DNA of 64,000 nucleotides from Escherichia phage JY01. The translations under genes were made by a program, and so were the position numbers. Below are positions 48,781 to 49,309 of the stretch, one piece after another. The notes under the pieces were generated by a model. The model searched no databases. It saw only the letters and a program-made list of their open reading frames with translations, and was not told the DNA's origin. The number at the start of each line of letters is the position of its first letter. Within the stretch, counting starts at the first letter, position 1. The stretch lies in sequence record OR995200.1; one strand, 5' to 3'.

Positions 48781-48862
48781 TTTATTTTTCCTAATTAATT
48801 TTGATGAGGTAATAGTATCACTACCTCATCAGTGTGTAAACAACTTTGTGAAATTATTTTAA
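48781..48862 (-). promoter_or_regulatory. Early promoter cassette copy 8 (variant with 9 bp inverted repeat around -10)
   Basis: -35 TTTACA (48835-48840), -10 TACTAT (48812-48817); inverted repeat GATGAGGTA/TACCTCATC 48803-48830. Confidence 0.55.
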
Positions 48863-49309
48863 ATCGTCTGCCCAATCAAGCTTAAGAGGTTCTTTGTATT
48901 CACGATCTAATACGACCGGAATTTGTACATCACCGCTAAATGATAAGGGCCCAACATTATAAGACAATGTTATATGCGGCGTGTAATCGTCAAAATCATG
49001 TGTAGCACCTAGCGCCCGCGCATACATGTGTCGACAGCGCAGATATTCAGAATCTAGTACAAGTACAAGAGTAGATCCATCTTGTGTTTTCCATACTTCT
49101 AAATGTCCAGAAGAAGCTACTTCAAAACTTCCGCTTGATGGAACATACGGAACATTTACTCTTGAATAACATATAGTCGAATGAATTTTTTCTCTAGGAA
49201 CTGGATTAGGAACACGTAAAGAGCGCTGAAGTTCTTCCAGCGCATCAAGTGTTAATTCTGAAAACTTAGCTGCTACATAAAGACCCGTTGAAAAGTCTTT
49301 AAATTCCAT
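48854..49309 (-). CDS. 57B: 2H-phosphoesterase family protein, position of T4 57B (Acb1)
   Basis: Two H-x-T/S motifs (HSTICYS, HITLSY); adjacent to 57A. Confidence 0.7.

Follow-up and report, generated by a model that had tools for sequence, protein, structure and literature searches.

The anti-CBASS protein Acb1 was found by activity-guided fractionation to be the product of gene 57B of phage T4 (NP_049750.1; Hobbs et al. 2022, Nature 605:522, PMC9117128). According to this work, the T4 enzyme contorts 3'3'-cGAMP, the 2'-OH attacking the 3'-5' bond, and cuts it on the 3' side of adenosine by a metal-independent reaction in two steps, via a cyclic phosphate to a linear 3'-phosphate product, by means of a catalytic tetrad formed by two HxT motifs (H44, T46, H113 and T115), with Y12, W74, F107 and W147 as stacking residues and E141 in contact with the adenine. 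Its substrates are cyclic di- and trinucleotides containing at least one AMP. Since cGG, cA4 and 3'2'-cGAMP are left uncleaved, Acb1 is unable to counter every type of CBASS. Moreover, the enzyme stops the activation of the effectors Cap5, Cap4 and CapV in vitro, and a T4 phage devoid of acb1 grows normally on hosts without CBASS and suffers a more than 300-fold loss on CBASS hosts (PMC9117128). In an independent HIDEN-SEQ transposon screen, insertions in 57B were depleted, the gene being conditionally required on a CBASS host.

Several other systems are related to Acb1 either by fold or by strategy. LigT, the 2'-5' RNA ligases and the other 2H phosphoesterases (clan of Pfam PF13563) have in common with Acb1 the two H-x-T/S motifs, a metal-independent chemistry proceeding through 2',3'-cyclic phosphates and, according to the paper describing the FBB1 structure (PMC9117128), the fold of the superfamily. 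However, these enzymes act on RNA ends, whereas the substrate of Acb1 is a cyclic oligonucleotide immune signal. Apyc1 (MBL fold, anti-Pycsar), the poxins and the phage ring nucleases share its strategy, i.e. the hydrolysis of a host nucleotide second messenger that blinds abortive infection or innate immunity, but their folds and substrates are unrelated to those of Acb1. For Apyc1, the absence of any structural or mechanistic homology to Acb1 has been stated explicitly (PMC9117128).

We analysed a stretch of 64,000 nucleotides from Escherichia phage JY01 (sequence record OR995200.1), hereafter called the window. The enzymology and the phenotype discussed below come from the T4 work, while the window provides the protein identity, the motifs, the synteny and the promoter consensus sites. 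Three contiguous genes are of primary concern:

48854..49309, minus strand: acb1 (gene 57B) coding sequence, an ATG-to-stop ORF of 151 aa plus stop
49309..49551, minus strand: gene 57A, tail-fibre assembly chaperone, 80 aa (Pfam GP57, E=5.2e-51; annotated in PP01, T4 and Sf23)
49551..50276, minus strand: gene 1 (dNMP kinase), an ORF of 726 nt, at the same relative place in T4, PP01 and Sf23

The original prediction placed a 151 aa protein of the 2H-phosphoesterase type at the 57B position and named T4 57B as Acb1. The ORF occupies exactly 48854-49309 on the minus strand, the 2H assignment is supported, and the identity given for the T4 gene is borne out by the work of Hobbs et al. (PMC9117128). 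When compared by BLASTP with the T4 57B translation, all 151 residues of the ORF are identical to residues 2-152 of gp57B/Acb1 (NP_049750), i.e. the alignment with T4 Acb1 that had been proposed as a check gives 151 identities out of 151. The two proteins also share their flanks, namely gene 1, 57A and trna.4. The T4 protein is annotated with 152 aa because the TGA stop of T4 57A creates ATGATGG, with an extra in-frame Met, whereas the TAA stop of the window gives TAATGG (junction 49307-49313). This accounts for the shift of one residue in both length and numbering, so that residue numbers in the window are the published T4 Acb1 numbers minus one. In addition, the Pfam model PF23474 "Anti-CBASS protein Acb1" matches the ORF with 202.7 bits (E=2.6e-60, for a cut-off of 27 bits), residues 8-149 covering the whole profile (1-144 of 144). 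A match of this quality is far beyond chance. NCBIfam contains no model for Acb1, nor for ip5, the internal head protein gene found downstream.

We then looked at the residues on which the activity depends. Both of the predicted H-x-T motifs are present, HSTICYS at residues 43-49 and HITLSY at residues 112-117, and the two catalytic histidines are therein retained as H43 and H112. The catalytic tetrad reads H43-S-T45 and H112-I-T114 (T4 H44, T46, H113 and T115). The stacking aromatics Y11, W73, F106 and W146 and the adenine-reading E140 (Y12, W74, F107, W147 and E141 in T4) are found as well. In total, the nine catalytic and ligand-contact residues listed by Hobbs et al. (2022) are all present in the ORF. 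A phmmer search of the PDB retrieved Acb1 of Erwinia phage FBB1 (7T26, apo; 7T27, complex with 3'3'-cGAMP) over residues 8-148 (E=4e-62), the C-terminal segment being part of the alignment; weaker matches were obtained with 9Q2G and 9Q2Y, whose chains are also named Acb1. FBB1 Acb1 is an orthologue in its own right, set apart by numerous substitutions and by one inserted residue after the equivalent of window residue 79, but the HxT motifs, the stacking aromatics and the C-terminal lid region are conserved. From this homology and from the identity with T4 Acb1, a compact fold of the 2H-phosphoesterase type, carrying a C-terminal lid, is predicted for the window protein.

The window gene is thus almost certainly acb1 (T4 gene 57B), the product of which is the anti-CBASS nuclease Acb1, and none of the evidence found contradicts this call. 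The original prediction described a candidate; as the protein is that of T4 residue for residue, it is more than a candidate and, at the protein level, equals the type member of the Acb1 family. The gene is therefore already known, an exact protein copy of the T4 enzyme with nothing new in it.

The annotation of the family is nevertheless not in line with this identity. The RefSeq records NC_000866, NC_054930 and NC_054941, as well as PHROG 755, use the name "RNA ligase", and many GenBank records have "hypothetical protein". One record among those sampled, OR062944, has "cyclic phosphodiesterase". It is very improbable that the protein is a LigT-like 2'-5' RNA ligase or a cyclic phosphodiesterase acting in RNA or tRNA repair. 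Apart from these labels, such a function could be read from the two HxT motifs, which are common to the whole 2H superfamily, from the location of acb1 at about 1.9 kb from a cluster of 11 tRNA genes, and from a faint match to Pfam 2_5_RNA_ligase2 (PF13563; E=0.11). However, this match is restricted to residues 80-122 and reaches 13 bits, far under the gathering score of 27 bits, so the LigT-like candidate misses its profile threshold, whereas the Acb1 model scores 202.7 bits; no NCBIfam model names the protein. Furthermore, the identical T4 protein is the one that fractionation linked to the cleavage of 3'3'-cGAMP, and the phenotype of the acb1 deletion is specific to CBASS, growth being otherwise without defect. 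In the gp57B literature examined, no RNA ligation and no cyclic-phosphodiesterase activity on RNA ends are reported for gp57B. The name "RNA ligase" appears to be an obsolete label that was passed on from the superfamily.

Having named the gene as acb1, we considered its genomic context. The window is that of a Tequatrovirus: a megablast search with positions 48400-49700 against a phage collection gave 630 matching records, nearly all of them Tequatrovirus of Escherichia, Shigella and Yersinia, and the 1.3 kb around acb1 show 100% identity to both Shigella phage Sf23 and Escherichia phage vB_EcoM-Sa45lw. On the minus strand, the genes follow the order 4, 2, 3, 1, 57A, 57B, internal protein, trna.4, trna.3, trna.2 and tRNA cluster, as in T4, PP01 and Sf23. 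The synteny is of the T4 type, with acb1 directly 3' of 57A and adjoining the internal-protein locus; this arrangement is a trait of the Tequatrovirus Acb1 orthologue and not of the whole Acb1 family. The proximity to a virion chaperone, as initially proposed, is confirmed by the GP57 match of 57A. The TAA stop of 57A shares one base with the ATG of acb1 (TAATG), and since the stop of gene 1 overlaps the start of 57A in the same way (TAATG), genes 1, 57A and 57B form one tight co-directional block. The overlap between the 57A stop and the acb1 start fits translational coupling, which may link the two genes.

The region further downstream shows some variation between phages. The tRNA cluster (45966-46987, minus strand) comprises 11 genes (Arg, His, Asn, Tyr, Met(CAT), Thr, Ser, Pro, Gly, Leu and Gln) and lacks the homing endonuclease segB, whereas T4 has 8 tRNAs and segB. 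Sf23, although identical to the window around acb1, has 10 tRNAs and no tRNA-His. Between tRNA-Gln and trna.2, a 174-aa ORF of PHROG 2290 (unknown function) is found at 47074-47598 (minus strand), where T4 and PP01 have just a spacer of about 100 nt; its counterpart in Sf23 is annotated "similar to phage slur07 gp121".

The conservation of acb1 that had been anticipated was found on a large scale. By tblastn, the protein is matched in 1485 phage records, 498 of them with at least 99% identity, and in 1362 records the match extends over at least 80% of the protein. Identities fall gradually to about 40% in T4-like phages of Vibrio, Acinetobacter and Aeromonas. At the nucleotide level, the gene differs from that of T4 at 12 positions and from that of PP01 at 5 positions, all of which (12/12 and 5/5) are synonymous third-position changes. 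As all the differences are synonymous, the comparison indicates that acb1 is under purifying selection. In Escherichia phage BYEP02 (OR757454.1, 89372-89901), the tblastn match falls into two pieces that together extend over 530 nt rather than 453, which suggests that this copy carries an insertion or a frameshift. For the window gene itself, it is barely conceivable that we are dealing with a silent or decaying copy, kept only through its linkage to 57A and unused in counter-defence: T4 can do without acb1 on laboratory E. coli devoid of CBASS, but the window ORF is intact, its protein has remained that of T4 despite the nucleotide differences and is so widely kept at 99% or more, its start overlaps the 57A stop in a way that fits translational coupling, and acb1 is transcribed in T4.

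We then searched for the signals that could drive the transcription of the intact acb1 gene. Two sites were retained, both as consensus matches only:

50302..50328, minus strand: middle-promoter-like site, TAATGCTTCA (MotA box), 11 nt, TATAAT (regex scan)
49907..49914, minus strand: late-promoter consensus TATAAATA inside gene 1

The TAATGCTTCA site, just upstream of gene 1, is shaped like the MotA-dependent middle promoters of T4, and middle transcription of 1-57A-57B likely enters there. The Mot-box has been described elsewhere (PMC4122927). The TATAAATA octamer, located 356 nt upstream of where 57A starts, is a candidate for the entry of late transcription into 57A-57B. In the whole window, TATAAATA is not enriched (12 sites vs. 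10.7 expected from shuffled sequence), and for this reason the single site in gene 1 is weak evidence. A generic sigma-70 scan of positions 47000-53000 likewise gave no excess of promoter-like sites (23 vs. 26 expected in shuffled sequence), and a terminator scan of the same region gave 5 terminator-like sites vs. 3 in shuffled sequence, which we counted as no excess. This sigma-70 and terminator scan served solely to place the two TTTACA-N17-TACTAT sites described below. The GenBank and RefSeq records of T4 have no promoter features annotated in the acb1 region, so that the promoter calls are based on consensus matches and on two statements on expression in the literature: the PhageExpressionAtlas preprint, in which 57B/acb1 expression is predominantly middle/late, and the work of Hobbs et al. 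(2022; PMC9117128), in which an activity degrading cGAMP was seen from about 15 min on. The original prediction placed acb1 in a late operon. The late consensus inside gene 1 agrees with this term, but it is too narrow in view of the MotA-box middle consensus upstream of gene 1 and of the published middle/late timing; a better description is "middle and late", with co-transcription of gene 1, 57A and acb1. Most likely, a middle promoter 5' of gene 1, plus late promoters, would drive acb1 along with gene 1 and 57A.

On its 3' side, acb1 is followed by an internal head protein gene bracketed by two direct repeats:

48801..48869, minus strand: PeSL-type element (early promoter plus stem-loop), copy 1 (promoter scan, direct repeat, fold z=-4.9)
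48523..48780, minus strand: ip5-type internal head protein gene, 85 aa (PHROG 3499 "internal head protein", E=3.7e-50; ip5 in PP01 and RB51)
48470..48538, minus strand: PeSL-type element, copy 2, after ip5 and before trna.4 (86% identical to copy 1)

The downstream neighbour had been described as ipI-like. An internal head protein gene is indeed present, but its type is ip5 and not T4 ipI: ip5 occupies the slot that ipI has downstream of acb1 in T4, and the two genes are unrelated and cannot be aligned. The N-terminus of the ip5 product (MKTYKEFATE..) resembles the one obtained for T4 ipI by translating the T4 sequence in the alignment (MKTFKEF..). In T4, Ip1, Ip2 and Ip3 each inhibit one specific GmrSD enzyme, Ip5 being unmentioned in this study (PMC12373910).

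The two 69-nt repeats (48470-48538 and 48801-48869) each carry TTTACA-N17-TACTAT and a stem-loop, in agreement with the PeSL consensus TTTACW-N17-TAYWAT described for the pair PST/T4 (PMC4122927). In copy 1, TTTACA (48840-48835) and TACTAT (48817-48812) are separated by a 17-nt spacer and accompanied by a 13-bp hairpin (48802-48831; z=-4.9 vs. shuffles). This hairpin lies 23 nt past the acb1 stop on the minus strand, with no U-tract after it. The promoter-like site of ip5 has its -10 hexamer within the loop. The hairpin is unchanged in T4 and PP01, and the 57A-57B transcript could have its 3' end marked or stabilised by it. The repeats extend 16 nt into the 3' ends of acb1 and ip5, and both proteins therefore end in ..DLK. 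In a three-way alignment, the window and T4 agree almost perfectly along acb1 and the first repeat; their identity collapses over the internal-protein gene and resumes at the second repeat. PeSLs have been proposed to mediate cassette shuffling and were first noticed at the internal-protein locus (PMC4122927). The swap of internal proteins between the repeats is a known phenomenon, which leaves the Acb1 call unaffected.

Two extensions of the Acb1 reading were also considered; each is speculative, and we judge them unlikely. First, Acb1 might have a second role beyond CBASS, on another class of substrates, either the cAAA signals of type III CRISPR or RNA ends with a 2',3'-cyclic phosphate. 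The removal of type III CRISPR cAAA signals by Acb1 was raised by Hobbs et al. as an untested possibility (PMC9117128). Second, and separately, the 3' end of acb1 could be the boundary of a swappable internal-protein cassette, since the PeSL repeat covers the last 16 nt of the gene. If true, this boundary role would physically join two counter-defence functions in one exchangeable island.

Finally, because the protein is identical to that of T4, it is nearly safe to infer that Acb1 acts in JY01 as it does in T4. This small enzyme with a 2H-phosphoesterase fold would bind the cyclic di- and trinucleotide messengers of host CD-NTases (3'3'-cGAMP, cUA, cAAA and others with at least one AMP) and put the ring under strain, which would let a ribose 2'-OH attack the 3'-5' phosphodiester. 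The HxT/HxT tetrad would provide metal-independent acid-base catalysis, and a 2',3'-cyclic phosphate intermediate would be converted into a linear product with a 3'-phosphate. Once the signal is removed, the CBASS effectors (nucleases, phospholipases and NADases) would stay inactive, and the infected cell would not be killed before the phage finishes. JY01 should therefore not evade CBASS systems using cGG, 3'2'-cGAMP or rings of more than three nucleotides, but with an intact Acb1 it should evade CBASS signalling through AMP-containing cyclic di- and trinucleotides. For the family, the importance of this result is one of annotation only: "RNA ligase" and "hypothetical protein" should become "anti-CBASS nuclease Acb1".
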